A DNA stretch of 64,000 nucleotides from a candidate division WOR-3 bacterium (GCA_965649295.1 CBFGKH010000010.1:18054-82053), one strand, 5' to 3'; shown: positions 14,103-48,016, counted from the stretch's first letter. Notes: a model not told the origin generated them from the letters alone. Numbers and translations: made by a program.

Positions 14103-14723
14103 TCAGTAGCCCCACTGCTCAGTTAGGTAGGTTCTACGACGACACTCCGGGCAAAGGACACGCATTGTGTCCGATCGGTATGGCGCAAACGTGCCTCGGC
14201 GTCCAGTTAGCTCAGTGGTGTTGCCAAGTTCCTGCTGCGCTACCAGCAATAGTGTTGGGTTCGAATTGACAAGGTCACCAACACGCCGACCGATCCAGAG
14301 CAGCTGTTCACGAGTTGCGAATGGCTCGCCACAGACCTCGCAATAGACAATGGTTTTCTCAACGGTCGTTTTCCAGTCGGCGCTGCGCTCAGTTCGCGCC
14401 GTGTCGAACTCGGTCGAATGTCGGATACCCTCACCGGTCGAGCAGTAACGAACACACTGCCCGCAATAGATACAGCGGTCTGCGTGATGGCAGTTGCGCA
14501 GTACCATCTTCTCGCTATCAATCACAATCTCTCGTGCATTGGTCGGGCAGACCTGCACACAGGCTCCACAACCAATGCACTTATCCGGATTGAACTGGAG
14601 AATGCCCCGAAAAGCCGGATCGACTGAATCCACCGCTGCTGGGAACTTAGTTGTGAAAGGCCCGCGTACCACAGCGCTGACCGCCTCAATCAGCTCACGG
14701 ACTTTGGGCAATGGTATCCGCAT
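14103..14723 (-). CDS. NuoI/MbhN-like 2x[4Fe-4S] subunit of the membrane-bound hydrogenase
   Basis: GPFTTKFP...FRG, CIGCGACVQVCP, CIYCGQCVRYC, plus extra CEVC and CPEC pairs. Confidence 0.88.
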   Translation of the reverse strand: MRIPLPKVRELIEAVSAVVRGPFTTKFPAAVDSVDPAFRGILQFNPDKCIGCGACVQVCPTNAREIVIDSEKMVLRNCHHADRCIYCGQCVRYCSTGEGIRHSTEFDTARTERSADWKTTVEKTIVYCEVCGEPFATREQLLWIGRRVGDLVNSNPTLLLVAQQELGNTTELTGRRGTFAPYRSDTMRVLCPECRRRTYLTEQWGY

Positions 14724-14726
14724 CTG

Positions 14727-15074
14727 CTATTCCTCGATAATACTCGGTCGCCCGCGGTCAGCGGTAAACTGATCCTTGACTGTATGCTTCCAGAGCTTGA
14801 CACCAAAGATGAGCGAACCACGTGCCAACGCGTGAGCTGCAATTGGGACCGTGATCAATACGAAGCCAGCGCAGAGCAATGCCTTAATGCCCAAAGCCGT
14901 GAACCCAGATAGCAAAAATACACCGAGCAGAATACCGCACGTACCCAAGGTGACACACTTGGTAGCCGCCTGCATCCGATTGTACAAATCTGGGAATCTG
15001 ACCAGTCCGATACAGCCAAGCAGAGTGAAAGCGACACCAGTGGCGATGGCTGCCCAGCCAAGTACGCTAGTCAT
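14727..15074 (-). CDS. mrpG: Mrp antiporter subunit G (MbhC-like)
   Basis: IGLVRFPDLYNRMQAATK, PIAAHALAR. Start set at ATG 15074. Confidence 0.88.
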   Translation of the reverse strand: MTSVLGWAAIATGVAFTLLGCIGLVRFPDLYNRMQAATKCVTLGTCGILLGVFLLSGFTALGIKALLCAGFVLITVPIAAHALARGSLIFGVKLWKHTVKDQFTADRGRPSIIEE

Positions 15075-15321
15075 CGAGACTCCTTCCTTCCAAGTACTTG
15101 GCCAGCGCCAACGTACCCACAAAGGAGATAACCGCCAGTGCGATTGAAAGGTCCATCAAATAGGACAGCCGGTAACGCAAGGCCATCAAAGCAGTAATAC
15201 TCGTGAAGATAACCGACATAATATCCACTGCTATCGCCCGATCTGGTATGCTCGGCCCTTTGAGAGCACGGTAAAGGCAGAAGAACGCCCCGCCGACAAG
15301 AATCACGACCAGCGTTGTCAT
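15067..15321 (-). CDS. mrpF: Mrp antiporter subunit F (MbhB-like)
   Basis: YRALKGPSIPDRAIAVD, ISFVGTLALAKYLE. GGAGG RBS before ATG 15321. Confidence 0.88.
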   Translation of the reverse strand: MTTLVVILVGGAFFCLYRALKGPSIPDRAIAVDIMSVIFTSITALMALRYRLSYLMDLSIALAVISFVGTLALAKYLEGRSLDD

Positions 15322-15332
15322 ACTCGCCTCCG

Positions 15333-15824
15333 TCAATCGAAAATCCGTTTGAGGAAGAACTCAAACGGCCCTATTATCCGTTTGGCCGCGGCATCCGGGT
15401 CGTCAGTCGTGACTTCGATCCAGTGGATGTACAAGGTGTCCTCTACCAGTTCGACTGACATAGTACCAGGTGTCAGCGTTATTGAGTTAGCTAAGAAGAC
15501 ACGGGCGATATCAGACTTCAACGATGTTTTTATTCGAACAATCCCTGGGCGGAGCTCAAGCCCAGGCGCAAGAACCCGAAGAGCGACGTCAACGTTAGCC
15601 CTGAGGCACTGCCACACAAAAACTGGAACGTAGACAAGTAACCAGAACCATCTAACCGGGTTCAGCAATCTTGCAAGGCCAACTGGGAAAACGTTTCCAA
15701 AGAAGATAGCAGCGAGCACCGCCGCACCGAGTCCGAAGACTAACTCCTGCCAACCAGTACTCCAGACCAGCAACAACCACACTCCAAGACACAGAACTAG
15801 GAGTGCGACCCGGCGCGCAATCAC
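15333..15824 (-). CDS. mrpE: Mrp antiporter subunit E (MbhA-like)
   Basis: LANSITLTPGT, LYIHWI. Confidence 0.9.
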   Translation of the reverse strand: MIARRVALLVLCLGVWLLLVWSTGWQELVFGLGAAVLAAIFFGNVFPVGLARLLNPVRWFWLLVYVPVFVWQCLRANVDVALRVLAPGLELRPGIVRIKTSLKSDIARVFLANSITLTPGTMSVELVEDTLYIHWIEVTTDDPDAAAKRIIGPFEFFLKRIFD

Positions 15825-15827
15825 TTG

Positions 15828-17333
15828 CTAACCTCCCAGCACTCCAACTGCGTAACGAGAACCATCAATGATGGCTTGGGCAGCTGGCCCGATTAGCCAG
15901 TCGAGCAGCGGCTTGAAGCCAACTCCGCCTACTAGCGAAAGCAGGACCAAGAACAACATAGCAGCTACCATTAGCACTGGTGATTCCCTGGCCGGTGTTG
16001 GCTCGGTTCCGGGCCGACTGAAGAAAGCACGGTCGACGACAGTTACAAAATAGCCAAGCGTCACGACCGAAAACACTGCTGCAAAGACAGCAAGCCAGTA
16101 CATTCGCGCATGGATTGCCGCGACGATGATGAACACCTTAGCAAAGAATCCAACAAACGGTGGAACACCAGCAAGTGAAAAGGCTGACAATATGAATGAC
16201 CACGCCGTGAATGGCATTGTTCGCTCAAGGCCACGCAGGCCGCCGATATCGCGGCAACCGGTAGCATCTTGTACCGAACCGGCCGACAGAAACAGCGCAC
16301 CCTTGCCAAGGGCATGGGCCAGAACCAAAAACAATGCACCAACGACACCCCAGTAGTTGCCGATCCCAAGTCCGATAACCACGTAACCAACCTGGCTGAT
16401 GCTCGAGTACGCCAACAATCGCTTCTGGTCGCGCTGAGCGTATGCCAAGACACCTCCGACAACAACTGAAACCACGCCCAGCGCAACAAGCAGATCGAAG
16501 AACTGCGGTGCGCTTACGCGCGTCAGGCCGAAAACGTTGAACATCACTCGGCTCAGCGCATAAACGCCCAGCACTTTAGAAAACACACCGGCTAGCATTG
16601 CCGCGACCGGCGTTGGTGCCGACGGATAGACATCAGGCAGCCAGGCATGGAACGGAACCAGAGCCATCTTTATCGCAAAGCCGAAAACGAGTGTCGCGGC
16701 AATAAGCCAGAACAACGGCGTACGCCCAGCCGCATCAAGAGCCGTAGCGACCACTGCCATGTTCAATGCTGAGACCCGCGCATAGAGAAGCGCTATTGCT
16801 AACAAGATAGCCATCCCGCCGATCTCGCCGAGCACCATGTACTTGAAAGCAGCCTCCAACCCTTCTGCTTCGGTGCTGAAAGCGACGAGCGCGTAGGATG
16901 CAACCGCCGAAATCTCAACAAAGACGAAGAGATTGAACATGTCACCCGAGACCGCGACACCGTTCAAACCTGTCAGCATCAACATGAGCAGCGTATAGAA
17001 CTTCCAGCGTCCTGTGTAACGATCAAGATAGCGCACGGCATAGACAGTCGCGGCCAATCCAACTAGCGTAACTACCAAAACGACTAGTGCAGTGAGGCTG
17101 TCGTACACCAAAGTTATACCAAGATGAGAAGGCCACCCACCCATTCGATACACAACCGGAGCCTCACGGAGAATGACGTCGGATACACCCAAACCGGCAA
17201 GACCGACTAGCACCGCAGCGGCTGCACTGGCGACAACATCTGATCCTCGCGGCCACAACTTAGAAAGCAGGGGAATCAGAAACGCCACCGCCATCGGCAG
17301 CAACACCAAAGTTGGCACATAACGCGGATCCAT
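15828..17333 (-). CDS. mrpD: MrpD/MbhH-like proton-conducting antiporter subunit
   Basis: GDMFNLFVFVE, EAAFKY, KMALVPFHAWLPD, KRLLAYSSISQVGY. Confidence 0.88.
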   Translation of the reverse strand: MDPRYVPTLVLLPMAVAFLIPLLSKLWPRGSDVVASAAAAVLVGLAGLGVSDVILREAPVVYRMGGWPSHLGITLVYDSLTALVVLVVTLVGLAATVYAVRYLDRYTGRWKFYTLLMLMLTGLNGVAVSGDMFNLFVFVEISAVASYALVAFSTEAEGLEAAFKYMVLGEIGGMAILLAIALLYARVSALNMAVVATALDAAGRTPLFWLIAATLVFGFAIKMALVPFHAWLPDVYPSAPTPVAAMLAGVFSKVLGVYALSRVMFNVFGLTRVSAPQFFDLLVALGVVSVVVGGVLAYAQRDQKRLLAYSSISQVGYVVIGLGIGNYWGVVGALFLVLAHALGKGALFLSAGSVQDATGCRDIGGLRGLERTMPFTAWSFILSAFSLAGVPPFVGFFAKVFIIVAAIHARMYWLAVFAAVFSVVTLGYFVTVVDRAFFSRPGTEPTPARESPVLMVAAMLFLVLLSLVGGVGFKPLLDWLIGPAAQAIIDGSRYAVGVLGG

Positions 17334-17336
17334 CAG

Positions 17337-17675
17337 CTAACCCCGCAACTTCCTAATCTCAGCGATATCGAATGTTCGATACTTCTCGTAGATGCGCATC
17401 GCTATGGCTAGCATCAATGCAGTGGTGGCGAGGCCAATGACAATTGATGTTAGTACCAAGGCCTGCGGCAGGGGGTCAACGAAGTTACGAACTGCGCTCG
17501 ACTGCGTGACGATAGGCGGCAGTGCGTCGCGTTTGAACCCCACAAGAGCAAAAAGGAGGTTCACAGCATACTCAATCAGTGTGAAACCGATGACAATCTT
17601 CAACAAGTTGCGTTTGGCAACAACTGTGTACAGCCCGATGAGAAACATGAGCACACAAGCAATTAGTGGTACCAT
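17337..17675 (-). CDS. mrpC: Mrp antiporter subunit C (MbhG-like)
   Basis: NLLKIVIG, VDPLPQALVLTSIVIG. Confidence 0.9.
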   Translation of the reverse strand: MVPLIACVLMFLIGLYTVVAKRNLLKIVIGFTLIEYAVNLLFALVGFKRDALPPIVTQSSAVRNFVDPLPQALVLTSIVIGLATTALMLAIAMRIYEKYRTFDIAEIRKLRG

Positions 17676-17677
17676 GG

Positions 17678-18118
17678 CTAGTCCTTCATGACGAAACGGG
17701 ACGCTCCCAGTGCCAAGAAGATCGCAAGCAGACCCGCACCAACTTTGATTCCGATCGCAATATTAGCTGGCATTATCAAACCACCGGATAGGAGCTGCAA
17801 CGGCTGTCCGATACCGAATACCGGCTTGTTGGAGAAGAACTCGACGCCGACCATGGCCCCGGCTACTGCCAGACCTACGAACGCAAGCCCACCAACGCTC
17901 TCCAGCGCCGACGAGAAGGTGTAGGAACTCTTCTCGACCTTCTCGACCGAACCAAAAGCAAGAGACTCCATTATGAACGCTGCCGCCACAAGCACACCTC
18001 CGGCGAATCCACCGCCCGGAGTCAAGTGACCATGCAAAATTATGTAGCAACCGTAAAGGAAGACGATACCAGCCAGCAGTCTGACGATGACTTGGACAAT
18101 TGTCGACATCCCCCGCAT
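17678..18118 (-). CDS. mrpB: Mrp antiporter subunit B (MbhF-like)
   Basis: HGHLTPGGGFAGG motif. Start set at ATG 18118. Confidence 0.88.
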   Translation of the reverse strand: MRGMSTIVQVIVRLLAGIVFLYGCYIILHGHLTPGGGFAGGVLVAAAFIMESLAFGSVEKVEKSSYTFSSALESVGGLAFVGLAVAGAMVGVEFFSNKPVFGIGQPLQLLSGGLIMPANIAIGIKVGAGLLAIFLALGASRFVMKD

Positions 18119-18119
18119 A

Positions 18120-18662
18120 CTAACTCCTCTCTCCAAGAATGCCGGCTCGCCGGACTACGGTTAGCACGCCCACGACCGCGGTGAAAAGGACTGTCGCCTC
18201 GCCAAGCGTGTCATAGCCACGGAAGTCTAGGATAATTGCCGCAACAACATTCGCCGCGCCTGTCCGCTCGAGTCCAAGAGCAATATACTCTGTAGCAACT
18301 CGCAGCAGTGGACTTCCGAAAGCAGGTAACTCAGCGAAGGCCCTCGCAGCGAGGACAACTAGCAGGATTGCAAAAACGGCATAGGCAGCGGTGGCGCTCA
18401 CCGACTCCCGACGGACGGAACTAGCCACAGTTGAATCGACGCTAGTCGAACGCAGAACAACAGCAGCAAAGAAAACAACCGTGAGGATTTCAACAAGGAT
18501 CTGAACGATCGCCAAATCCGGCGCTTGTAGCAGTATGAACATAATCGCCACACTAAAACCGACGATCCCGAGCGCCACCGCTGCGGCAAGCAGGTCCCTA
18601 ATCTCGATAGCAATGACTCCCGCAACCAGCATCACCGCGAGCAGCACATAGAGCTCAATCAT
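18120..18662 (-). CDS. MbhD/MbhE-like fused subunit (MrpA C-terminal domain, DUF4040-like)
   Basis: LQAPDLAIVQ and NVVAAIILDFRGYDTLGE motifs. Confidence 0.85.
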   Translation of the reverse strand: MIELYVLLAVMLVAGVIAIEIRDLLAAAVALGIVGFSVAIMFILLQAPDLAIVQILVEILTVVFFAAVVLRSTSVDSTVASSVRRESVSATAAYAVFAILLVVLAARAFAELPAFGSPLLRVATEYIALGLERTGAANVVAAIILDFRGYDTLGEATVLFTAVVGVLTVVRRAGILGERS

Positions 18663-18665
18663 CCG

Positions 18666-20570
18666 CTACCTCGCCGCAAGCACAAGATATACTATCAATG
18701 CCCCCAAAAATACCCAACCGACGTACAACGGCAGAATACCAGTATGAATCATAGCAAGTGCCCGCCCAGTAGAGCGAACAAGCCTGCCTGAGGCCGACAC
18801 AATCCAGTTAATGACATCGTGAACTGCCTCACGTAGTACAAGTCCGGCTCCGCGACTGACCGCCACCACCCATGAATATAGATCAAAAGCGCCAGCTTCA
18901 CCGAACCGCAGCAGCTCACTGAGCAATGGTAGCTGCTTCACCGAGGTATAGAACGCCGTCCCCGTCACACGACTCTCCTCGTTGTCGGCGATTGATTCTC
19001 CACCAACGAACGTACGACCAACAATCGGCTTACGCGCTGTCCCCAGCAGGTAAAGGATCGCACCAACGCCTAAAGCTATCACCAGCAGCACTGTCGCCTG
19101 CCGTGGCTCCCACCATCCAGGCAACATCACGCTGAACGGCAGTCCTGGATAGATAAGTGCTGACAACGCCACTGGAAAAGCGAAAACACCAAACAGCACG
19201 CAAGTAGCAGCAAGCAGTACCGGCGGGAGCCACATTGCAAAGCTAACTTCATGCGCCCGAGCCAAAGATGCCGGCCGCTGACCGAAAAAGATAGCGTGCA
19301 GCAACTTCAGAAACGACGCAAGCGTTAAAACACTGCCCAACATTGCCGCTACGAGGTAGAACGGGAAAACGCTGTTGCCTTCCCGCGCCAGCTCAATCAC
19401 CCCCTGATAGACCATCCATTTGGAAACAAAACCATTTAGTGGTGGCATACCCGATATTGCCAGCGCCGCGACTAGGAATGAAAGCATCGTTAGAGGCATC
19501 TTTACTGCCAGCCCGCCAAGTTGATCAATTTCATCTGTCTTCGCGACACTTTCAACCGAACCAGCAGCAAGAAACAACCCTGTCTTGTATATCGAGTTGT
19601 TGAGCATATGAAACAGCCCCCCAGCGATACCCACCGGGACACCGGTACCGATCCCCAACACCATGTAGCCGACTTGAGACACAGCATGGAATGAGAGCAA
19701 GCGCATTACCCGTTTCTGAACTAAAGCCATCAGCACGGCACCAAGGATCGTCACTGAACCAGTAACCATCAGCAGGGTGCGAACAGTCTGGTTGGTTGCA
19801 ATGTCAAACAAACTAGTCGATATCCGAACAAGAAGGTATATACCAAGCAGCTTGTCAAGGGATGCTGGAATGAACGCCATCACCGTGGCGGGTGACGATT
19901 CTGATGCCTTGGGAATCCAAGAATGGAATGGCATCGAACCTGCCTTGGCAAGCGCCCCCACCGCAACCAGCAAATAGGCAAGGACTGTTAGCGGTTCAAG
20001 TAACGGCCAAGGAGCTATCGGCATTAAGTCAATCCAATCGTGAACAATGAGCAATACCACACCCAACAGCATAGCGAAGTCAGATAACCCAATTACCACC
20101 AGTGCCTTTGCTGCTGCTTGGCTGGCACCAGCGCGTCCGCTCAGTAGCAATCCGTAGGTTACGGCAAGCAGAGAACCCCAGAAGAAGAGTAACACCGGCA
20201 GATTGGCCGAAGCCAATACTCCATTTGCGCAGGCAAGTGCCAACAACATGAAGAGGAAGTGATTGCTGGCCTTAGGCTCACCACGAAGGTACCGCAAAGA
20301 ATAGGTAAGTATCAGCACAGCGAAGATAGCAACGAACAACAACACAAAGCCTGACAAAGCGTCGAGTCGGAACGACAGCGGCAGACCACTGAGCCAACCG
20401 ATATCGTACACTACGATCGTAGTCCGCGTCTTGATGAAAAGCAGCACCGCATAGAACAGCGATGCAACTGTCCCGATGAAGCAGAATTCGTTGCGCAGAC
20501 GCCGCACAACGAAACCAGCCACCCCAGCAGCGGCCGGAACCAGTAACAACATCAATATCGGGTGCGGCAT
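18666..20570 (-). CDS. NuoL/MrpA/HyfB-like antiporter subunit
   Basis: AKAGSMPFHSWIP, RLLSFHAVSQVGY, PPLNGFVSKW, long C-terminal extension. Confidence 0.85.
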   Translation of the reverse strand: MPHPILMLLLVPAAAGVAGFVVRRLRNEFCFIGTVASLFYAVLLFIKTRTTIVVYDIGWLSGLPLSFRLDALSGFVLLFVAIFAVLILTYSLRYLRGEPKASNHFLFMLLALACANGVLASANLPVLLFFWGSLLAVTYGLLLSGRAGASQAAAKALVVIGLSDFAMLLGVVLLIVHDWIDLMPIAPWPLLEPLTVLAYLLVAVGALAKAGSMPFHSWIPKASESSPATVMAFIPASLDKLLGIYLLVRISTSLFDIATNQTVRTLLMVTGSVTILGAVLMALVQKRVMRLLSFHAVSQVGYMVLGIGTGVPVGIAGGLFHMLNNSIYKTGLFLAAGSVESVAKTDEIDQLGGLAVKMPLTMLSFLVAALAISGMPPLNGFVSKWMVYQGVIELAREGNSVFPFYLVAAMLGSVLTLASFLKLLHAIFFGQRPASLARAHEVSFAMWLPPVLLAATCVLFGVFAFPVALSALIYPGLPFSVMLPGWWEPRQATVLLVIALGVGAILYLLGTARKPIVGRTFVGGESIADNEESRVTGTAFYTSVKQLPLLSELLRFGEAGAFDLYSWVVAVSRGAGLVLREAVHDVINWIVSASGRLVRSTGRALAMIHTGILPLYVGWVFLGALIVYLVLAAR

Positions 20571-20590
20571 AGACTATGACTCGCTTTCGT

Positions 20591-21973: not shown

Positions 21974-23157
21974 TTGCCGAACCTCTCCCTGATTGCCTCA
22001 GTCTTTGCCCAGGAAAGCTGCAAAAGCTCTCGCCCTGAGTAACGCATCCGACCATCCTCAAACGCAGCCATTCGTTCAGTGCAACAATAGCACGGGTCAA
22101 CGGCTGCCAAGGTCAAGGCAGCATCAGCTATTGAGCCACCACGAACCGCCACAACATTTGAGGCAATATTCATATAGCTCGGAGCTCGAACCTTGTGACG
22201 CAACGGTCGGTTGGTCCCATCTGAGCGAATATAATGAAATACCTCCCCACGTGGCGCCTCGGTTCTGCCAATACCCTCACCAGGGGGCACTTCGTCGATT
22301 CTCGTCTCGATTGGACCATCAGGTAGGTCTCTAAGACACGCTCGAATGATCTTAATCGACTCGAATATCTCAAGGAAACGGACCCTGGCCTTGGCAAAAA
22401 CATCGCCCTCATTGAGGACAATCACATTCCATGGCACCCGGTCATAGGCACAGTGAGGCTCGTCCCGGCGAACATCGATGTCGACACCGGACGGCCGCGC
22501 AGTTGGGCCAACAACTGAGTAGGCGACTGCCTGCTCCCGTGTCAACCGCCCCACACCCTCAAGCCGAGCCCGAATCACCGGATCATCGAGTACGGCATTT
22601 GTAAGCATCATCGTCTTCCTCTCGACAATTGCCAACGCCGCCTCAATCTGCGGTATCTGTTCTGCTGTGATATCATGTCGAACACCGCCGGGCTTGTTCA
22701 TGGCATAGTGGTTGCGGTTGCCGGTTATCGACTCGAAAACCTGCAGAACATGCTCACGGTAACGCCAAGCCCACATCCAGACTGTGTTATAACCGATGAA
22801 ATGACCGGCAAGACCCACCCAAAGTAAATGGGAGTGAATTCGTTCTAGTTCATGGACGATGGTCCGGAGGTAGTCTGCTCGTGGTGGCGGCTTGATACCA
22901 GCACAATCCTCGATTGCCAGTACGCAGGCAAGTGGGTGCGAATTCGAGCAGATACCACAGATTCGCTCAACCAGAAAAGGAATCTGGTCGTAAGTTAGTT
23001 CAGGGGAAATGAACTCGTGTCCTCGATGATTGTACCCCAGATGAATCTCCAAATCCACAACCTTCTCGCCCTCGACGATAAGCTTGAAAAACTCAGGTTC
23101 TTCCTGAAGCGGATGATAGGGACCAATCGGCACAATTCGTCGCCCGTTACCGCTCAT
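21970..23157 (-). CDS. Group 4 [NiFe]-hydrogenase large subunit (MbhL/HycE-like)
   Basis: GPYHP, GYNHRG, L1 motif ERICGICS, L2 motif DPCYCCTER followed by a C-terminal extension, EAPRGE. Start set at ATG 23157. Confidence 0.92.
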   Translation of the reverse strand: MSGNGRRIVPIGPYHPLQEEPEFFKLIVEGEKVVDLEIHLGYNHRGHEFISPELTYDQIPFLVERICGICSNSHPLACVLAIEDCAGIKPPPRADYLRTIVHELERIHSHLLWVGLAGHFIGYNTVWMWAWRYREHVLQVFESITGNRNHYAMNKPGGVRHDITAEQIPQIEAALAIVERKTMMLTNAVLDDPVIRARLEGVGRLTREQAVAYSVVGPTARPSGVDIDVRRDEPHCAYDRVPWNVIVLNEGDVFAKARVRFLEIFESIKIIRACLRDLPDGPIETRIDEVPPGEGIGRTEAPRGEVFHYIRSDGTNRPLRHKVRAPSYMNIASNVVAVRGGSIADAALTLAAVDPCYCCTERMAAFEDGRMRYSGRELLQLSWAKTEAIRERFGK

Positions 23158-23599
23158 GAAACTCACCTCGACGTTCGTAGTCACGGCGCAAAGGACGTTG
23201 ACTGGCATCCCAATCGGTATCAGAAGTGAGCAACGGTTTCAGACCAGGATGGCCGACAAAGTCAATGCCCAATAGCTCATGCATCTCACGTTCAATCCAA
23301 TCGGCGGCGGGAAACCAGGTTGCCTGTGACTCCACTGATGGATCATCCTTGGGTAGTAGAACTTTAAGAGTATAGATTATGCCCGTATTATCGTCCGAGA
23401 AGTGATAAAGAACCTCGAAACCATCGCGGGTATCAATACCCGTGCAGATCGATAATCGCATGCCACAGTCACAGTGCAAATATCGTGCGGCAGCAGTTAC
23501 GCTTCCGCGCGGTATTCGGATATATAGACGGCGCGGGTTGTGTTCAAGTACATCAAGTTGGGGAACGAAACGACGGAGACCATCGAGGATCGAACTCAT
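23147..23599 (-). CDS. NuoC/MbhK-like subunit
   Basis: FEVLYHF, ADWIEREMHELLGIDFVGHP, PLRRD. Confidence 0.88.
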   Translation of the reverse strand: MSSILDGLRRFVPQLDVLEHNPRRLYIRIPRGSVTAAARYLHCDCGMRLSICTGIDTRDGFEVLYHFSDDNTGIIYTLKVLLPKDDPSVESQATWFPAADWIEREMHELLGIDFVGHPGLKPLLTSDTDWDASQRPLRRDYERRGEFHER

Positions 23600-24012
23600 A
23601 GTTTACTCAGTGCCTTGACCACTCCGAGAATCATCGCCTCCGGCTTGGGCGGGCAGCCGGGCACATAAGCGTGCACCGGAATGTGTCTATCATACGGGCC
23701 AACGACATTGTAGGAATTTCGGAAAATGTGGCAGTTGCAGGCACATGAACCGATTGCAATCACCAGGCACGGTTTGGCAGTCTGCTGATACACTTCAAGT
23801 ACCCGAGGCAGTGACTTTCGGTTGACTACCCCAGTCACAAGCAGCGCATCAGCGTGGCGCGGTGAACCCACCAGCACTACCCCAAATCGTTCCACGTCAT
23901 AACGTGGAGTAAGCAGTTCAAGTATCTCAATGTCACAGTTGTTGCAGGGCGCCGCCGCCAAATGATACACCCAGGGTGACTTCTTAAGACCCCAGAGTTT
24001 CGCCCGGCTCAT
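23596..24012 (-). CDS. Group 4 hydrogenase small subunit (NuoB/MbhJ-like)
   Basis: PCNNCDIE (CxxC type), SPRHAD, GSCA, VPGCPPKPE. Confidence 0.9.
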   Translation of the reverse strand: MSRAKLWGLKKSPWVYHLAAAPCNNCDIEILELLTPRYDVERFGVVLVGSPRHADALLVTGVVNRKSLPRVLEVYQQTAKPCLVIAIGSCACNCHIFRNSYNVVGPYDRHIPVHAYVPGCPPKPEAMILGVVKALSKL

Positions 24013-24938
24013 AGTCCTACCCATGCCAAACCAACTGCAACTACTCCTAACAGGCCGAGTCCAAGCCAGAAAAACCTCAGCGCGTGATCAATCTTGAACC
24101 GAGGATTGGTGTTCTTTAACAGAATCATTAGCACGACAACAGCAAGCACCTTGGGAATTGCCCACCAACTTGCAAGACCGCCCCACAGCAATGTTACCAG
24201 GAAGACCGGCAGTAGTAAGAACATCATCGCCTTTGTTAGTCGGAAGACGGCTAGCGGCGCTCCCGAGTACTCAACCATCACGCCGGTCATGATCTCCTGC
24301 TCCGCCTCGGCGATATCAAACGGAACGTAGCCAAGTTTGGCCTGGAAGCAGATTAGCACGATTATAGTGGCGAGCAGACCGGAAATGGAGTACAGGAAAG
24401 GTCCAGCATCCATCTGCAGCAGCACAAGCTCGCCGAGCTTTATTGCACCGCCACTCTTGATAATCGGCACCGCCAAGGCTAGCAAAAATGGTAGTTCGTA
24501 ACCCAAGTACAGTGTCATTTCGCGAGAAGCACCAACCGCACCAATCGGATTGCGTGATGCTGAGGCCCCTATGATTGTCGCGAGCGGCGGCAGCGCGAGC
24601 AGGTAAACAAGCACCAGCACGTCGCCAACGAACGACCGGTTAGGAACAAAACTTGCCGCGAAAAGCATCACTGCAATAACGCACATTGCTGCCAAACCAA
24701 GCAGTGGTGCAAACAGAAAAGTAGTTCGGGCAGCCCCAGTTGGTACAATCGTTTCCTTGACAAGGAGCTTCAGCATGTCCGCAAAAGGCTGGTAGAAAGG
24801 CGGTCCCTGCCGCCACTGGACACGCGCCGAGACGAATCGGTCCACCCAAGTGAGCACAAGCCCAAGTGTAGCCGTGAACACAAAACCAGGAAAGACGAGA
24901 AAGGCGAAAACCAATCCCCAACCGGCAAGCCAGTTCAC
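24009..24938 (-). CDS. NuoH/MbhM/HycD-like membrane subunit
   Basis: DRFVSARVQWRQGPPFYQPFADMLKL, PFDIAEAEQE, EYSG. Confidence 0.9.
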   Translation of the reverse strand: MNWLAGWGLVFAFLVFPGFVFTATLGLVLTWVDRFVSARVQWRQGPPFYQPFADMLKLLVKETIVPTGAARTTFLFAPLLGLAAMCVIAVMLFAASFVPNRSFVGDVLVLVYLLALPPLATIIGASASRNPIGAVGASREMTLYLGYELPFLLALAVPIIKSGGAIKLGELVLLQMDAGPFLYSISGLLATIIVLICFQAKLGYVPFDIAEAEQEIMTGVMVEYSGAPLAVFRLTKAMMFLLLPVFLVTLLWGGLASWWAIPKVLAVVVLMILLKNTNPRFKIDHALRFFWLGLGLLGVVAVGLAWVGL

Positions 24939-25402
24939 TGGCGCCTCCCGTGCGGGGAACGAGCAACAAAGCCAACCCCAACCCTGACCTCATCGGCCGG
25001 TTCTGCCTCGACAAACTGCAACGCTCCGGTGGGACAAGTAGTGGCGCAGCGCGGGCCTTCCGGACGATCACCACAAAGGCTGCACTTTTGGCTCACGCGC
25101 CGTAACAGTGTTGTCTCAATGGCACCGAATGGACAGGCAAGCGCACATGAACGGCAGCCGATGCAATGGAAGCTTGAACGCAAAACAAGACCACTCTCTG
25201 GATCGCGCCTGATCGCCCCAGAAGGACAAGCCGCAAGACAAAGTGGTTCCTGACAATGACGGCAAGACATCGGCAGCAACACGGCTGAGGCAACTTCGGC
25301 GTGTCGAACCCGAGCTTCCCCCTTGAAGCGACTGCGACAAGCTGCTTCGCAAGCTCGACAGCCGATGCAGTAGTCCAGCCTCAGTTGAAGCCTTCTCGCC
25401 AT
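24935..25402 (-). CDS. 4x[4Fe-4S] electron-transfer protein (HycB/DmsB/CooF-like)
   Basis: CIGCRACEAAC, CRHCQEPLCLAACP, CIGCRSCALACP, KCSLC...CATTCP. Confidence 0.88.
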   Translation of the reverse strand: MARRLQLRLDYCIGCRACEAACRSRFKGEARVRHAEVASAVLLPMSCRHCQEPLCLAACPSGAIRRDPESGLVLRSSFHCIGCRSCALACPFGAIETTLLRRVSQKCSLCGDRPEGPRCATTCPTGALQFVEAEPADEVRVGVGFVARSPHGRRQ

Positions 25403-27012
25403 CAGTAAGCTGCCTCCAGTGGGTAGCGACGGGAAGATGTTGTCGGCCGAATTTCTACTGCGGCTGGAGGTATTGCTGGAGATCCAGCCGCATCAGCAAC
25501 AATTCCGAACAACGCTCGGTTCTCACGTGCGTTGACACCGACTACTGCCGTACCGGCTGGTACGGCCGGCGTGCGCCGTAGCCGCAGCGTTCGCTCACTT
25601 GTACTAGTTCTGAGAACAACCTCATCAACGGTCTGCCCCAACTCATTGTCGGGACCCACCGTAACGTCTTGTTCGTCAACGTAAAGACCACCAAGACCGA
25701 TGGCCCGCTTCTCACCAACGAGCCGCAGTGAAGAAGGATTCTGCCAGCGCGCCAGTTCAGTTTGAGCTAGGTCGGCAATAGCTTCGACTCCGGCTGGAGG
25801 GACCGTTGACTCGCCCAGCGGAGCGATGGGGGCGAACTCTTCTAGAATCTGGCCCACCCGACGACTACCACTAAACGGTGCAGCCAGTGGCCATCGTCGC
25901 ACCGCTCCCCAATAGCCAACTCCGGTTGATTCCTTTTCCAGCTCACTCGGAACCGGTAGAACTAATCCACGTAATGGCCGGATCGGTCGGAAAATGCTAG
26001 TAACCACGATATGCTCAATCTGAGCAGTCTCTGGAAAAAGCTCGGGATAGCTCAAGGGATGGAGCGAGCCAAACCAGAACAGCGTTCGCAACGTATTGCT
26101 GGCCGCTGCCTGACGCAACTGCTCAAACGTATTCGGCCCCAGCCGCACGCGTCCTTCTGCAAAACCGGTAAACGTTGCTTTCGCCTGCACAGCCAAAAGC
26201 TGAGAAGCGTAGCTGTGCAAAGTTGGAAGAGCGGTTCTACCGAGACCGGCAGCACTACCGACAAAGGCCAATCCGGTCTTCAGCATGTTTGCCGCCGCCT
26301 GTAGTTGTCCAAGTTCGACACCGGCAGCCGCGGCAAGTTGTTCAGCCCCAAGACCGATCTTTGCACCCAACAGAGCAGCGATTCCGAGCAAAGCAAACGG
26401 TTCAGCCCCGGGCCGAACTAGAATACTCAAGTGAGCAAGAGTATCCTGGGCTGTTCGCAGCGAGTCGATAACGATCAAGCGGTTTTGGCGATTAGCGTAG
26501 CGCCATTCCACAATCATTCCGCCGGCAACTGGCGACGTCGCAAAAACGTCGCCAACCAGCAAAATCGTCTTGGCGCCGCGAACATCGTCCAGACCAGCCT
26601 CGCGCACTCCAGCAACTTTCTGGCCGAACAGGTTGCCAGGTTCGATATAGCCACACACAAGCAGCTGCGCCCTGACAGCTCGAGCGAATCCCCAAACCAA
26701 GTCAAGCTCGTCGCCAGTTAGCCCACGGCTGTAGGCAACGGCAAGACGGCCGTCCTGACCAGCAGCCAAAGCCCTACGACAGTACTCCAACGCCTGCCCC
26801 CAGCTCACTTCCCGACCATCGAGCAATGGATAGCCGAGTCTTCGCGGATGGTCGAGCACAATGCTGGCACTGTTCCCACGCGGACACAGCCGACCGCGAT
26901 TGACCACCGCGTCAGACGGATACTCCATTCGGTACTGATAGCCATCGAAAACAACCTCGGACTCGCACCCGTTCAAACAAAACGGGCAGGTAGTCCTGTT
27001 CCGCGTCAGCAT
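25402..27012 (-). CDS. Molybdopterin-oxidoreductase-fold protein (FdhF/NuoG-like) with an FS0 cluster; probably binds no Mo cofactor
   Basis: Start at ATG 27012 (TGATG overlap). TTCPFCLNGC...LCPRG FS0 motif and RLGYPL...VSWGQAL are present; no C/U-H Mo-ligand motif; only 536 aa. Confidence 0.7.
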   Translation of the reverse strand: MLTRNRTTCPFCLNGCESEVVFDGYQYRMEYPSDAVVNRGRLCPRGNSASIVLDHPRRLGYPLLDGREVSWGQALEYCRRALAAGQDGRLAVAYSRGLTGDELDLVWGFARAVRAQLLVCGYIEPGNLFGQKVAGVREAGLDDVRGAKTILLVGDVFATSPVAGGMIVEWRYANRQNRLIVIDSLRTAQDTLAHLSILVRPGAEPFALLGIAALLGAKIGLGAEQLAAAAGVELGQLQAAANMLKTGLAFVGSAAGLGRTALPTLHSYASQLLAVQAKATFTGFAEGRVRLGPNTFEQLRQAAASNTLRTLFWFGSLHPLSYPELFPETAQIEHIVVTSIFRPIRPLRGLVLPVPSELEKESTGVGYWGAVRRWPLAAPFSGSRRVGQILEEFAPIAPLGESTVPPAGVEAIADLAQTELARWQNPSSLRLVGEKRAIGLGGLYVDEQDVTVGPDNELGQTVDEVVLRTSTSERTLRLRRTPAVPAGTAVVGVNARENRALFGIVADAAGSPAIPPAAVEIRPTTSSRRYPLEAAY

Positions 27013-27824
27013 CACCAGGGATCCTCGATATCCTTGACCTGTTCCCACGTGAGAACTGGGCCATCCTTGCAGGCGAGATAAGGACCCACACGACAATGAC
27101 GGCACTGACCAACACCACAAGACATGTTCTTTTCCATTGAAAGATAGATGTTGTTACCGGCGAAACCAGCCTCAACCAAGCGCATAGTAACGAACTTCAT
27201 CATAATCGGTGGCCCACAAACGACTGCCACGGCCGTCTTCGTGTCGCAAGGGACTTCATCCATGAGACAGGTAACCACACCTACCTTGCGCATCCAGCGT
27301 TCGTCGCGTACGTCGACCGATAGGTCGATATCAACCTTGGGTAGCTTCTCCCACTCCTTCAACTGTGTCTTATACACGATATCATCAGGTGTCCGAGCTC
27401 CGTACCGAAGGTAGATCCGTTTGTACTTATCAATCTCGTGAACCAGGGCAAGAAAAAGCGCCCGCAATGGGGCCAGTCCAACACCGCCCCCGACAATATA
27501 GACCTCACGGCCCTCGAACTTCTCAAGTGGATAGCGCTTTCCATAAGGACCGCGTACGCCAACTTGAGCACCTGGCCCCAACTCAAACAACGCACCTGTC
27601 GCCCTACCGACCTTCATAATCGTCATCTCAAAGGTATCGCGGACAAAGTGCGATGACGACGGTGTGAACGGTGCTTCGCCGAAGCCGGGAATGGTGAGTT
27701 CAACGAATTGACCGGCAAGGAATGGTATTTCCTTCTCCGGCTTCAGGACAAAAGTTCGGATGTTTGGCGTTTCCTGTACCACGCTCAAAATAGTCGCTGG
27801 CACTGGTTGGTAAGGATTGATCAT
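27012..27824 (-). CDS. FAD/NAD(P)-binding oxidoreductase (AsrB / sulfhydrogenase-gamma / PyrK-like)
   Basis: FLAGQF, RGPYG, VGGGVGLAP, YGART, CGPPIMM, [2Fe-2S] motif CGVGQCRHC...C. Confidence 0.88.
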   Translation of the reverse strand: MINPYQPVPATILSVVQETPNIRTFVLKPEKEIPFLAGQFVELTIPGFGEAPFTPSSSHFVRDTFEMTIMKVGRATGALFELGPGAQVGVRGPYGKRYPLEKFEGREVYIVGGGVGLAPLRALFLALVHEIDKYKRIYLRYGARTPDDIVYKTQLKEWEKLPKVDIDLSVDVRDERWMRKVGVVTCLMDEVPCDTKTAVAVVCGPPIMMKFVTMRLVEAGFAGNNIYLSMEKNMSCGVGQCRHCRVGPYLACKDGPVLTWEQVKDIEDPW

Positions 27825-28846
27825 ACCTCTGCCAACACCTTCCGAATATCAATACCGCCCATGCAAGCCCGGAAACACCGTCCACAACCAGAACAGGCAT
27901 AGAAGCCGTGGTCGTTCTTGAACTGATTCCACTTGCAGTCGAAGCGATTGGCGAAACGTTTAAGGAACTTACCCCGGTCGTTAGCGCCACCACCAACTCG
28001 GGCATAAGCCGCCTCATAGCATGCATCCCAGACCCTGATGCGCTCAAAGCCTGAATCGCTGGCTCGATCATAGAGCAAGAAACAGTAGCAGGTCGGACAG
28101 CCAAAAAGGCAGCCGTAGCACTCAACGCAGTGCTGGGCATGTCGTTCCCAAAAAGCGGCGTCAAGGAGACGCTTCTCTATCGCTCGCGACAAATCGCTGT
28201 TCCAGGGCTGGGGATTGATCTGTTGCAGTTGTTGCTCAGCGCGCCGGCGCTGTTCAGCGCGTTGTTCTAATTCAGCTTCGGTCGCCGGACGGAACAAACC
28301 CGGAGCTACCTTCACGAGTCGCTCTCCCACCTCGGTCAATGTCTCAATCAACAACCGGTCTACCAACGCAGTAACGACAGCATCAGCGCCTTCGGTCGAG
28401 TAGGGCTTATTGCCAAGAAGATTACAAAAACAACTGGGCTCGGGTTTCGGACAATCGGCGACGACCTTCACTGTTCCCGCAATTCGAGCCAAGTAGAACG
28501 GATCCGCATACTCGCCCTGACCAAGTATCCGTTCATGCACGCGGAGCGGCACAAGGTCGCAGTTCTTCATGCCAAAAACAACCTGATGCGCGGCAACCGG
28601 CTCTGGCGCCTTTGGCATCCCAGCCACAACTGCACGCGGGCTGAAGAGAAACGACTTTACTGGTTCGGCAGCCCGAATACCGCCAAGGGCCCGAAGCAAC
28701 TCAGTGCCGTCAACAATCGCTCCGGCGGTATACCTCTGCCAGTGAACTTGAGAATCAACTATCGTGGGGACGTATACCGTAGCGCCGTCAAGCAGGCTCG
28801 CAAGCCACGTTTCCATCTTGGAAGCTTCGATTGCGAACCTGCTCAC
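27821..28846 (-). CDS. 4Fe-4S dicluster protein (AsrA / sulfhydrogenase-beta-like)
   Basis: CVECYGCLFGCPTCYC, WDAC, CSGCGRCFRAC. Start moved to GTG 28846 because the upstream TTG is part of the -35 box. Confidence 0.85.
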   Translation of the reverse strand: MSRFAIEASKMETWLASLLDGATVYVPTIVDSQVHWQRYTAGAIVDGTELLRALGGIRAAEPVKSFLFSPRAVVAGMPKAPEPVAAHQVVFGMKNCDLVPLRVHERILGQGEYADPFYLARIAGTVKVVADCPKPEPSCFCNLLGNKPYSTEGADAVVTALVDRLLIETLTEVGERLVKVAPGLFRPATEAELEQRAEQRRRAEQQLQQINPQPWNSDLSRAIEKRLLDAAFWERHAQHCVECYGCLFGCPTCYCFLLYDRASDSGFERIRVWDACYEAAYARVGGGANDRGKFLKRFANRFDCKWNQFKNDHGFYACSGCGRCFRACMGGIDIRKVLAEV

Positions 28847-28854
28847 GGATAGCA

Positions 28855-28882
28855 AAAATAGAGACCCTTCTTCATTTGTCAA
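28855..28882 (-). promoter_or_regulatory. Hydrogenase operon promoter, probably leaderless
   Basis: TTGACA-16-TATTTT, 8 nt before GTG 28846. Confidence 0.55.
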
Positions 28883-29934: not shown

Positions 29935-29969
29935 GTGTCTGAAGGGATGCTATTTGATTGGAGGAGCTG

Positions 29970-31844: not shown

Positions 31845-31856
31845 GGGCGTCGCACT

Positions 31857-48012: not shown

Positions 48013-48016
48013 CTGG

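Follow-up and report, generated by a model that had tools for sequence, protein, structure and literature searches.

The 18-gene operon described here, located in a 64-kb window (the whole stretch of DNA that was analysed), probably encodes an intact Hun hydrogenase in which a Mrp-type antiporter module is joined to an input arm made of a pseudo-FdhF subunit and an NAD(P)H-linked HunAB pair, with electron transfer coupled to ion movement. Judged by its genes and motifs, the locus almost certainly belongs to the Hun kind, an operon type (hunA-P) named by Glass et al. (bioRxiv 10.1101/536078) and known from genomes only. The asrA/asrB-like hunAB genes at the 5' end, the CGIC and CYCC motifs, HunC, HunD, a Mrp-like Na module and HunP were all found in one operon.

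Our literature search found the cluster described only in that preprint, whose available text names Kosmotoga as a cultured carrier, and in Matheus Carnevali et al. 2019 (PMC6349859), which presents the gene cluster of an "enigmatic" group 4 NiFe hydrogenase of Saganbacteria RX5A together with a general 'Mbh-like' hypothesis. The search found no biochemical study of, or experiment on, any Hun complex. The original prediction named no characterised complex of this composition, and none was found; two genome-based descriptions of the operon type itself are in print, however, the version with a molybdopterin-domain gene among them, as far as the available text of the two sources goes (bioRxiv 10.1101/536078, PMC6349859). 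Two papers on Antarctic-lake MAGs (PMC9324843, PMC8542988) call 'group 4g Mbh + Mrp' ferredoxin-dependent, and the AsrAB module goes unmentioned in their available text. A Mesotoga preprint considered as a source on Hun was rejected, as it concerns Mbx.

Gene content and organization of the operon

All 18 genes lie on the minus strand and are transcribed from about 28882/28846 to 14103 (Table 1). Each gene and identity listed in the original prediction was reproduced by Pfam or NCBIfam, and the co-oriented, tightly packed and often overlapping arrangement that it described was recovered: with each ORF taken at its longest, overlaps occur at 11 of the 17 junctions and gaps of 2-20 nt at the remaining six. 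No NuoE, NuoF, GltD-type flavoprotein or AsrC/siroheme subunit was detected when all 18 genes were searched with Pfam and NCBIfam.

Table 1. Features of the operon, in window coordinates
Feature	Position	Strand	Supporting match or remark
Promoter-like site TTGACA-16 nt-TATTTT	28855..28882	-	Consensus match only; 8 nt upstream of GTG 28846
hunA, AsrA/HydB-like Fe-S subunit	27821..28882 (longest ORF; probable start GTG 28846 or ATG 28816)	-	Pfam Fer4_22 4e-21
hunB, AsrB/HydG-like flavoprotein (FAD, NAD(P), [2Fe-2S])	27012..27824	-	Pfam NAD_binding_1, FAD_binding_6, DHODB_Fe-S_bind
Mo-enzyme-fold subunit, 537 aa, FdhF/NuoG-like	25402..27015	-	Pfam Molybdop_Fe4S4, sole scoring family
hunC, HycB-like polyferredoxin, 16 Cys = 4 x [4Fe-4S]	24935..25402	-	Pfam Fer4_11
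hunD, NuoH-like membrane subunit	24009..24938	-	Pfam NADHdh 2.6e-58
hunE, hydrogenase small subunit (NuoB-like)	23596..24024	-	Pfam Oxidored_q6 4e-28
hunF, NuoC-like subunit	23147..23599	-	Pfam Complex1_30kDa 1e-25
hunG, group 4 [NiFe] large subunit	21970..23208 (probable start ATG 23157)	-	Pfam Complex1_49kDa, NiFeSe_Hases
hunH, antiporter-like subunit (NuoL/M/N, MrpA/D family)	20591..21973	-	Pfam Proton_antipo_M 4e-59
hunI, long antiporter-like subunit (NuoL/MbhH-like)	18666..20570	-	Pfam Proton_antipo_M, Proton_antipo_N
Fused MbhD/MbhE-like subunit	18120..18662	-	Pfam MbhD 1e-14, MbhE 2e-8
MrpB/MnhB-like subunit	17678..18136	-	Pfam MnhB 2e-23
MrpC/NuoK-like subunit	17337..17675	-	Pfam Oxidored_q2 2e-27
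MrpD-like third antiporter-like subunit	15828..17333	-	Pfam Proton_antipo_M 5e-66
MrpE-like subunit	15333..15824	-	Pfam MNHE 1e-40
MrpF-like subunit	15067..15336	-	Pfam MrpF_PhaF 3e-14
MrpG-like subunit	14727..15122 (probable start ATG 15074)	-	Pfam PhaG_MnhG_YufB 1.5e-23
hunP, NuoI/HycF-like 2 x [4Fe-4S] subunit	14103..14723	-	Pfam Fer4 families

All 16 cysteines of HunC are invariant in its alignment, and its matches in the PDB include 9mqx_E (2.5e-21), HycB3 of HDCR (6e-20) and HycB of formate hydrogenlyase (1e-16). HunP matched HycF (7z0s_F, 6e-18) and MbhN (6cfw_N, 1.5e-11), and the NCBIfam model for the formate hydrogenlyase Fe-S subunit at 1e-25, a score below its cut-off.

The available text on the Hun operon of Glass et al. 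(bioRxiv 10.1101/536078) describes the same AsrA/AsrB-like HunAB at the 5' end, polyferredoxin HunC and NuoH-like HunD, the same HunEFG and HunP around a NiFe site with CGIC (L1) and CYCC (L2), and the same Mrp-like Na module. It differs in having 16 genes rather than 18, the extra ones here being the Mo-fold gene and the third, MrpD-like antiporter gene, and in its host lineage, the present one being different and uncultured. A separate match to the MrpD-like gene is absent in four related loci (L019, L021, L022 and L020).

The linkage is conserved in relatives. The order HunA-HunB-Mo-HunC-NuoH-small-NuoC-large is kept in all 16 fetched related loci (a contig end truncates L026), and the Mo-fold gene is present in 38 of 41 related genomes. 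Using a 10-sequence Mo-fold alignment, the linkage of the first four genes to the hydrogenase was also found in another 22 genome loci, some of them in MAGs whose titles read Latescibacterota, Dehalococcoidia and SM23_31. Among the best 80 HunA loci from metagenomes, 66 carry the Mo-fold gene after hunB and 14 are cut by contig ends, leaving none without it. Separation of the first four genes from group 4 hydrogenases was thus not seen in relatives, and the linkage held in every locus that could be judged. Across relatives, identity is 69-88% for the large subunit, 62-80% for HunB and 21-51% for the Mo-fold subunit, the fastest-evolving of the operon. Two loci (L144, L147) are 8-gene variants without membrane subunits.

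The hydrogenase core

Both Ni-binding CxxC motifs predicted for the large subunit were found, as RICGIC (L1) and DPCYCC (L2), and HunG carries a C-terminal extension of about 33 aa. Among large subunits of related loci, CGIC is present in 31 of 32 and CYCC in 28 of 32, the CYCC exceptions being two CYSC and two partial sequences. The best solved relatives of HunG are MbhL (6cfw_L, 2e-79) and HycE (7z0s_E, 1e-74). Its placement in group 4g is taken from the available text of Glass et al. (bioRxiv 10.1101/536078) for a HunG with the same motifs.

These motifs bear directly on whether the complex is a hydrogenase at all. HunA and HunB do resemble AsrAB and the sulfhydrogenase subunits, as a sulfur, polysulfide or sulfite reductase of the MBS or Asr kind would have it, but MBS/Mbx-type large subunits lack the intact Ni-binding CxxC pair found here, and neither an AsrC nor a siroheme subunit is encoded in the operon. 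The genome also encodes HypD and a HycI-type protease, and we consider this reading scarcely credible. Scores likewise fall short of those for anaerobic sulfite reductase AsrABC, which has AsrC beside AsrAB: AsrA reached 89.8 bits against a cut-off of 323 and AsrB 194.3 bits against 288.6 (TIGR02910/TIGR02911).

Comparison with other solved complexes separates the operon from each of them. Pyrococcus furiosus Mbh (6CFW, group 4d) supplies the closest solved large subunit and shares the Mrp-derived module and fused-type MbhD/E homologues. However, ferredoxin acts directly at MbhN in that 14-subunit enzyme, which has no flavoprotein or extra Fe-S module and lacks HunA, HunB, Mo-fold and HycB-like subunits, whereas four conserved input-side genes are extra here. 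In sulfhydrogenase I (9NEZ B, C) the beta and gamma subunits are homologous to HunA and HunB, but a group 3b enzyme is a soluble alpha-beta-gamma-delta complex with a group 3 large subunit, while the core here is of group 4, with a Complex1_49kDa-type large subunit set in a 13-gene membrane module. Respiratory complex I, with NuoEF input, quinone reduction and a NuoD without a NiFe site, differs in that NiFe cysteines are present here and NuoE and NuoF are absent from the operon.

The Mo-fold subunit is very probably a pseudo-enzyme

The Mo-enzyme fold proposed originally held up in a high-confidence model (pLDDT 88.8, pTM 0.90), which matched formate dehydrogenases including FdhF at TMq 0.78-0.79 and NuoG at 0.66-0.69. 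The cysteines of the FS0 [4Fe-4S] cluster (C10/C13/C17/C44) are invariant in 17 Mo-fold sequences. When profiles were aligned, Glu stood opposite the Sec of an F420-dependent formate dehydrogenase and Pro opposite the next residue, the catalytic His, which bears out the 'pseudo-Mo' description in the original prediction; Glu at the Sec position is not invariant across the order. PF00384 had no match in the subunit or anywhere in the genome. MoaC, MoeA_N and Mob_synth_C (the MoaA C-terminal domain) gave no matches in this genome, scored as 100% complete, while each was detected in 11 of 14 control genomes. Among the 41 related genomes MoaC occurs in one, against 38 with the Mo-fold gene. A search for longer homologues returned no fused forms of the protein at E <= 1e-10, in itself weak evidence.

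We hold with high confidence that the Mo-fold subunit has kept its fold and [4Fe-4S] cluster and lost the Mo/W-pterin site, and this pseudo-enzyme status is added by the present analysis. Lacking that site, the subunit would most likely serve as a scaffold or one-cluster wire, by analogy with the Mo-fold part of NuoG in complex I. A complex prediction for HunA residues 24-353 with the Mo-fold subunit scored 0.01 against a mark of 0.32, a value that counts neither for nor against docking at this site.

The layout of the cytoplasmic arm is shared with E. coli formate hydrogenlyase (FdhF-HycBCDEFG; 7Z0S/7Z0T), with the Mo-fold subunit matching FdhF (TMq 0.79), HunC matching HycB (1e-16), HunP matching HycF (6e-18) and the large subunit matching HycE (1e-74). 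In contrast to that enzyme, the FdhF-like subunit has no Mo ligand and the host no Moco synthesis, a flavoprotein pair is added, and the Mrp-type membrane arm contains three antiporter-like subunits. The catalytic Mo/W-bis-PGD subunit with its Sec/Cys ligand, which marks formate hydrogenlyase (group 4a), was not found. Although the Mo-fold subunit is matched best, in sequence and in fold, by formate dehydrogenases, and HunC and HunP match HycB and HycF, it is very improbable that the complex is of the formate hydrogenlyase type or otherwise Mo/W-dependent, with the FdhF-like subunit as catalytic donor site and HunAB as accessories: the Sec/Cys ligand and neighbouring His are replaced, the PF00384 match and the cofactor-synthesis genes are absent from a complete genome, MoaC is confined to one relative, and no subunit of the operon evolves faster. 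On present evidence the 'formate hydrogenlyase' label is wrong for this lineage.

The HunAB module and the electron donor

Over its full length HunB is related to the solved, NADPH-binding gamma subunit of NADPH-dependent sulfhydrogenase I (9nez_C, E 2.5e-46 over residues 3-262), and the best solved relative of HunA is the beta subunit of the same enzyme (9nez_B, 3e-29). Other solved structures with the HunB architecture are PyrK (NAD+) and NfnA-type subunits. HunB here reads GGGVGLAP, with a [2Fe-2S] motif Cx4CxxC...CxDGP; the nucleotide-binding GGGVGxAP motif and the [2Fe-2S] Cys motif each occur in 37 of 38 loci. The HunA alignment contains 16 invariant Cys. NCBIfam matches of HunA to ShyB/HydB/AsrA were all under cut-off, and both proteins score below every NCBIfam equivalog cut-off, so they form a separate subfamily to which substrate transfer by homology is not guaranteed. 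Coupling to NAD(P)H via HunAB is nevertheless plausible and reasonable by homology, and we favour NAD(P)(H) as the likely physiological partner. The sequence of HunB does not tell NADH from NADPH.

NAD(P)H as donor departs from the proposal of Glass et al. that ferredoxin feeds HunABC (bioRxiv 10.1101/536078), and the available text of that preprint and of PMC9324843 and PMC8542988 generally treats HydDB group 4g as coupled to ferredoxin. The complex would then be a ferredoxin-dependent, H2-evolving and ion-pumping hydrogenase in which HunABC collect electrons and the flavin/nucleotide site of HunB is vestigial, regulatory or an internal carrier. This would fit the physiology: ferredoxin is a major carrier in the genome, and its eight POR_N-type 2-oxoacid:ferredoxin oxidoreductase matches and Rnf cluster indicate that reduced ferredoxin is plentiful, suiting a Mbh-like role. 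The ferredoxin-dependent MbhL is the closest solved large subunit, and HunA and the polyferredoxin-like HunC offer surface clusters to ferredoxin. A vestigial site looks unlikely, however, when the GGGVGxAP motif and the FAD and NAD domains are kept in 37 of 38 loci and HunB, at 62-80% identity, ranks with the best conserved subunits; the closest solved HunAB relatives are diaphorase subunits of an NADPH-dependent hydrogenase; and characterised Mbh and Ech need no HunB-like flavoprotein. On balance we judge ferredoxin as sole donor to be rather unlikely.

NAD(P)H and reduced ferredoxin might also act jointly to form H2 in a confurcating or bifurcating enzyme whose membrane arm adjusts the energetics. 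Four HunC clusters and two separate distal proteins (HunA, Mo-fold) leave room for a branched wire, and the Mo-fold profile also matches subunits of bifurcating complexes, namely subunit A of NiFe-HydABCSL (7t2r_A) and Nfn-ABC (9bov_A). Such a two-donor enzyme is improbable in our estimate, given that bifurcation in the solved Nfn complexes takes place at a flavin other than the PyrK/HydG-type one, that the operon is without a GltD- or NuoF-type flavoprotein, and that the genome already has a [FeFe] hydrogenase adjoining a NuoF-like gene.

Proposed mechanism and implications

The cytoplasmic arm resembles that of formate hydrogenlyase, running from the FdhF-like protein through the HycB-like polyferredoxin and the HycF/NuoI-like subunit to the small and large subunits, with HunA and HunB at its distal end. 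Electrons would enter from NAD(P)H at the FAD and [2Fe-2S] cluster of HunB, pass to the HunA clusters, and continue, possibly via FS0 of the Mo-fold subunit, through the four HunC clusters and the two HunP clusters to the small-subunit cluster and NiFe. Redox chemistry would be coupled to H+/Na+ movement via NuoH, the three antiporter-like subunits and MrpB/C/E/F/G. Under standard conditions the formation of H2 from NAD(P)H is endergonic, which makes it impossible for the enzyme to produce H2 from NAD(P)H and export ions at once. Two directions are left: H2 evolution from NAD(P)H driven by the gradient, or reduction of NAD(P)+ by H2 with ion pumping.

We also put forward, tentatively and at slightly less than even weight, that Hun translocates ions as an H2:NAD(P)+ oxidoreductase and that its input arm independently re-invents the N-module of complex I: a decayed formate dehydrogenase serves as scaffold for an FAD protein of the PyrK/HydG type and an Fe-S protein of the HydB type, while the hydrogenase core is still active. 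Complex I NuoEFG shows the same design idea, a flavin module on a decayed Mo-enzyme fold. Its flavin subunit is NuoF-type (FMN), whereas HunB is PyrK/FNR-type (FAD), so the likeness is one of analogy and not of homology of the flavin subunit. If this holds, Hun would resemble a surviving intermediate that links formate hydrogenlyase with an NADH dehydrogenase, and the 8-gene variants L144 and L147 would be the soluble arm working alone.

The electron source of characterised group 4 hydrogenases is ferredoxin, formate or CO. Linking a member of the group to pyridine nucleotides, with ion coupling, would amount to a new bioenergetic reaction. Fermenters and syntrophs could use it to expel H2 from NAD(P)H, paying with the ion gradient; alternatively, it could save energy when H2 is oxidised with NAD(P)+. 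Hun would also offer a concrete model for how an NADH-input module came to sit on a defunct formate dehydrogenase in a hydrogenase ancestor, the course of events assumed for complex I. The operon is widespread in uncultured anaerobes, where it is usually annotated 'ferredoxin-dependent Mbh' or 'formate hydrogenlyase'.

Operon start and end

Homologue alignments favour GTG 28846 as the start of hunA, which coincides with the end coordinate given in the original prediction. The single promoter predicted there has a counterpart in the TTGACA-16 nt-TATTTT site, but such sites are no commoner in the region than in shuffled sequence (10 observed against 8.5 +/- 2.7). A scan of the window with a Rex operator consensus gave two matches at three mismatches, against 1.9 expected by chance, and both lie away from the start of the operon; upstream of the operon, the best match had at least four mismatches in all 16 loci. 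A Rex-family gene is present in the genome on another contig. An FNR/CRP-type box was rejected as uninformative, the best upstream match having four mismatches here and two to four in relatives. Downstream of the last gene there is only a weak hairpin (14112-14095) without a T-run. In three of 15 related loci (L015, L028 and L019), TTGACA lies at -27 to -39 from the start.

The operon is of the Hun type

Within window positions 14103-28882 we found 18 open reading frames, every one on the minus strand. When the longest frames were taken, 11 of the 17 junctions overlapped and the other six had gaps of 2-20 nt. Pfam and NCBIfam assigned labels to all 18 products, reproducing each of those given in the original prediction of 18 co-oriented genes (see the table). 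The large subunit carries the motifs RICGIC and DPCYCC and an extension of about 33 residues beyond the second motif; among the related large subunits, CGIC was present in 31 of 32 and CYCC in 28 of 32.

Operons of this type have been described twice from genomes. Matheus Carnevali et al. (PMC6349859) found one in Saganbacteria and termed its group 4 NiFe hydrogenase "enigmatic"; Glass et al. (bioRxiv 10.1101/536078) described a 16-subunit complex and named it Hun. The latter source gives HunAB as AsrAB-like, HunG as 4g by HydDB (L1 CGIC, L2 CYCC), and the carriers as Atribacteria, Firmicutes, Omnitrophica, Elusimicrobia, Bacteroidetes and cultured Kosmotoga. Against that description the window matches gene for gene, but has an extra gene for a protein with a molybdenum-enzyme fold (Mo-fold) and a third antiporter-like gene. 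No biochemical study of Hun, or further description, was found among the openly available main texts searched. The earlier remark that no characterized complex of such composition came to mind agrees with this search, but the operon type itself was already on record. The original observation is confirmed, and its interpretation is supported in part. The window operon belongs to this published but uncharacterized kind; what is new here is the evidence, set out below, for the Mo-fold subunit as a relic without its cofactor.

Features of the operon, its flanks and other loci of the source genome (positions are those of the window unless a contig of the source genome, G000, is named)
Feature	Position	Strand	Basis or context
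AsrA/HydB-like Fe-S protein (HunA)	order 1	minus	Fer4_22
AsrB/HydG-like flavoprotein (HunB)	order 2	minus	FAD_binding_6, NAD_binding_1, DHODB_Fe-S_bind
Mo-fold protein, 537 aa	order 3	minus	Molybdop_Fe4S4, sole scoring domain
Polyferredoxin, 155 aa (HunC)	order 4	minus	16 cysteines
NuoH, small subunit, NuoC, large subunit	orders 5-8	minus	matching Pfam families
Two antiporter-like subunits	orders 9-10	minus	Proton_antipo_M
MbhD/MbhE fusion	order 11	minus	MbhD, MbhE
MrpB, C, D, E, F, G	orders 12-17	minus	matching Pfam families
NuoI/HycF-like protein (HunP)	order 18	minus	Fer4 families
Promoter-like site TTGACA-16-TATTTT	28882-28855	minus	8 nt ahead of GTG at 28846
ORF, 168 aa	13428-13934	minus	downstream; 169 nt past last hun gene, same strand
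purS/purL-type gene			downstream of operon
Metallo-beta-lactamase-fold gene		divergent	upstream of operon
Acetyl-CoA hydrolase/transferase gene			upstream of operon
Acetyl-CoA hydrolase/transferase fused to GNAT domain	within 29958-33989 / 46612-49168	plus / minus	fermentative context
ADP-forming acyl-CoA synthetase-type protein	within 29958-33989 / 46612-49168	plus / minus	CoA_binding, Succ_CoA_lig, ATP-grasp_5
Acyl-CoA dehydrogenase and dihydrolipoyl-dehydrogenase-type flavoprotein	within 29958-33989 / 46612-49168	plus / minus
Rnf cluster: RnfC-like (447-aa frame), adjacent RnfD	G000:C10:1298-3253		Complex1_51K; about 15 kb before the window, same contig
[FeFe]-hydrogenase large-domain gene (651-aa frame)	G000:C6:34610-37444		adjoins Complex1_51K (NuoF-like) gene
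Group 3 [NiFe] hydrogenase small and large subunits	G000:C9:46011-48453 (L071:8011-10454)

The flavin module is linked to the hydrogenase

Among solved structures, sulfhydrogenase I gamma matches HunB best (9nez_C, E 2.5e-46 over residues 3-262), ahead of PyrK and NfnA-type subunits, and the beta subunit of the same enzyme is the best match of HunA (9nez_B, 3e-29). Of 38 related loci, 37 keep the nucleotide-binding motif GGGVGxAP of HunB and 37 keep its [2Fe-2S] motif Cx4CxxC...CxDGP; at 62-80% identity HunB is among the most conserved proteins of the operon. To our knowledge, the characterized proteins with its three-domain architecture (HydG, AsrB, PyrK, NfnA/SudB) all react with pyridine nucleotides. 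Since HunA and HunB score under every NCBIfam equivalog cut-off, we place them in a subfamily of their own.

Linkage was examined in related genomes and in metagenomes. A protein search found the Mo-fold protein in 38 of 41 related genomes, including all 34 with a completeness of 90% or more. Sixteen of the positive loci, representing five families of the order, were retrieved, and all 16 kept the order HunA-HunB-Mo-HunC-NuoH-small-NuoC-large. Ten gave a separate match to each of the 18 queries. Among the rest, the first antiporter-like gene was the only query without its own match in L024, whereas L019, L021 and L022 had one antiporter-like gene where the window has three, L020 had no Mrp genes, and the locus in L026 was interrupted by a contig end. 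In a scan limited to one genome per species, 22 of the 39 loci recovered (L029-L050) showed the same Hun gene order, among them metagenome-assembled genomes with the titles Latescibacterota, Dehalococcoidia and SM23_31. The remaining 17 resembled ordinary Mo enzymes weakly, at the N-terminus, and had no Hun neighbors. In metagenomes, a HunA search recovered 217 relatives; among the best 80 of these, the Mo-fold gene lies immediately 3' of hunB in 66, 14 stop too early to judge, and none was found to lack it. The first four genes are thus kept with the group 4 hydrogenase in the loci that could be judged, as predicted, and the alternative that they are unlinked to it in relatives can be set aside.

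The Mo-fold subunit has very probably lost its cofactor

An AlphaFold2 model of the Mo-fold subunit, built on 17 homologs (pLDDT 88.8, pTM 0.90), was closer to formate dehydrogenases including FdhF (TMq 0.78-0.79) than to NuoG of complex I (0.66-0.69). The four cysteines of its N-terminal [4Fe-4S] cluster are invariant. In a profile alignment with selenocysteine formate dehydrogenase, Sec stands opposite Glu and the next His opposite Pro, and this Glu varies within the order. The Pfam Molybdopterin family had no match in the protein or anywhere else in the source genome. MoaC, MoeA_N and the MoaA C-terminal domain were likewise not found in that genome (100% complete, 0.58% contamination), and each search matched in 11 of 14 control genomes. 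Among the 41 related genomes, 38 carry the Mo-fold gene whereas one gave a MoaC match, at a contig end; molybdenum cofactor biosynthesis appears to be missing from the order as a whole. With 21-51% identity the subunit is the fastest evolving of the operon. Taken together, these data make it highly likely that the subunit carries no Mo/W cofactor and works as a scaffold, or as a wire of one cluster. The label "formate hydrogenlyase" is ruled out for this lineage by the same evidence, and the analogy to the complex I N-module becomes sharper.

Such reuse has precedents, since the Mo-fold profile also matches 7t2r_A, 9bov_A and NuoG, all Mo-fold subunits of NAD(P)H-linked Fe-S complexes. The family is small, with 29 members at E <= 1e-30 among 1.84 billion cluster representatives, and a search for longer homologs at E <= 1e-10 found no fused forms, the latter being weak evidence. 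A cluster of Mo-fold look-alikes of 527 aa from Aquificota is automatically named "NADH-dependent fumarate reductase subunit C", a hint that Mo-fold subunits without cofactor may also occur in further soluble oxidoreductases linked to NADH.

The cytoplasmic arm and its variants

The nearest solved relatives of HunC are 9mqx_E, HDCR HycB3 and HycB of formate hydrogenlyase (FHL), those of the large subunit are MbhL and HycE, and HunP is nearer HycF than MbhN. The arm is thus FHL-like, except that its FdhF is dead and that a flavin module has been added. For maturation, the source genome encodes HypD and a HycI-type protease.

Across loci the membrane modules range from three antiporter-like genes with a full Mrp set, through one antiporter-like gene, to none. 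Two metagenome contigs, L144 and L147 (6752-13347), carry eight genes, HunA-HunB-Mo-HunC-small-NuoC-large-NuoI, followed by opposite-strand genes, with neither NuoH nor antiporter genes in the operon. This gene content suggests that the cytoplasmic arm is able to work alone, and the version may be a soluble offshoot of the group 4 arm.

Promoter and flanking genes

Alignment of homologs favors the GTG as the hunA start. The prediction of one promoter held in part: a consensus-like site stands directly ahead of this codon, but such sites were not enriched (10 seen versus 8.5 ± 2.7 in shuffles). A single promoter, read from consensus, is therefore reasonable rather than demonstrated. Searches for Rex and FNR-type sites upstream of the operon in this lineage were negative. 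The flanking genes are unrelated. For the 168-aa ORF downstream, Pfam gave no match at E <= 1e-4; directly ahead of it stands a TTGACA-like hexamer. Elsewhere in the window, the acetyl-CoA and acyl-CoA enzymes and the dihydrolipoyl-dehydrogenase-type flavoprotein of the table form a fermentative setting.

Electron donor and direction

Production of H2 from NAD(P)H is uphill under standard conditions. Two modes are consistent with this. In one, the ion gradient would drive H2 release from NAD(P)H; in the other, Hun would couple H2:NAD(P)+ reduction to ion pumping. The source genome contains Rnf, an [FeFe] hydrogenase linked to a NuoF-like gene, probably of the HydABC-type NADH/ferredoxin-dependent kind, a group 3 [NiFe] hydrogenase and eight POR_N matches, so ferredoxin and NADH are both in play and the genome context favors neither as donor. 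The group 3 large subunit is closest to that of NiFe-HydABCSL (7t2r_D, 4e-115) and to MvhA (2e-109); its gene pair has glycosyltransferases downstream and no adjacent partner subunits. The [FeFe] enzyme would be the third hydrogenase in this 2.28-Mb genome.
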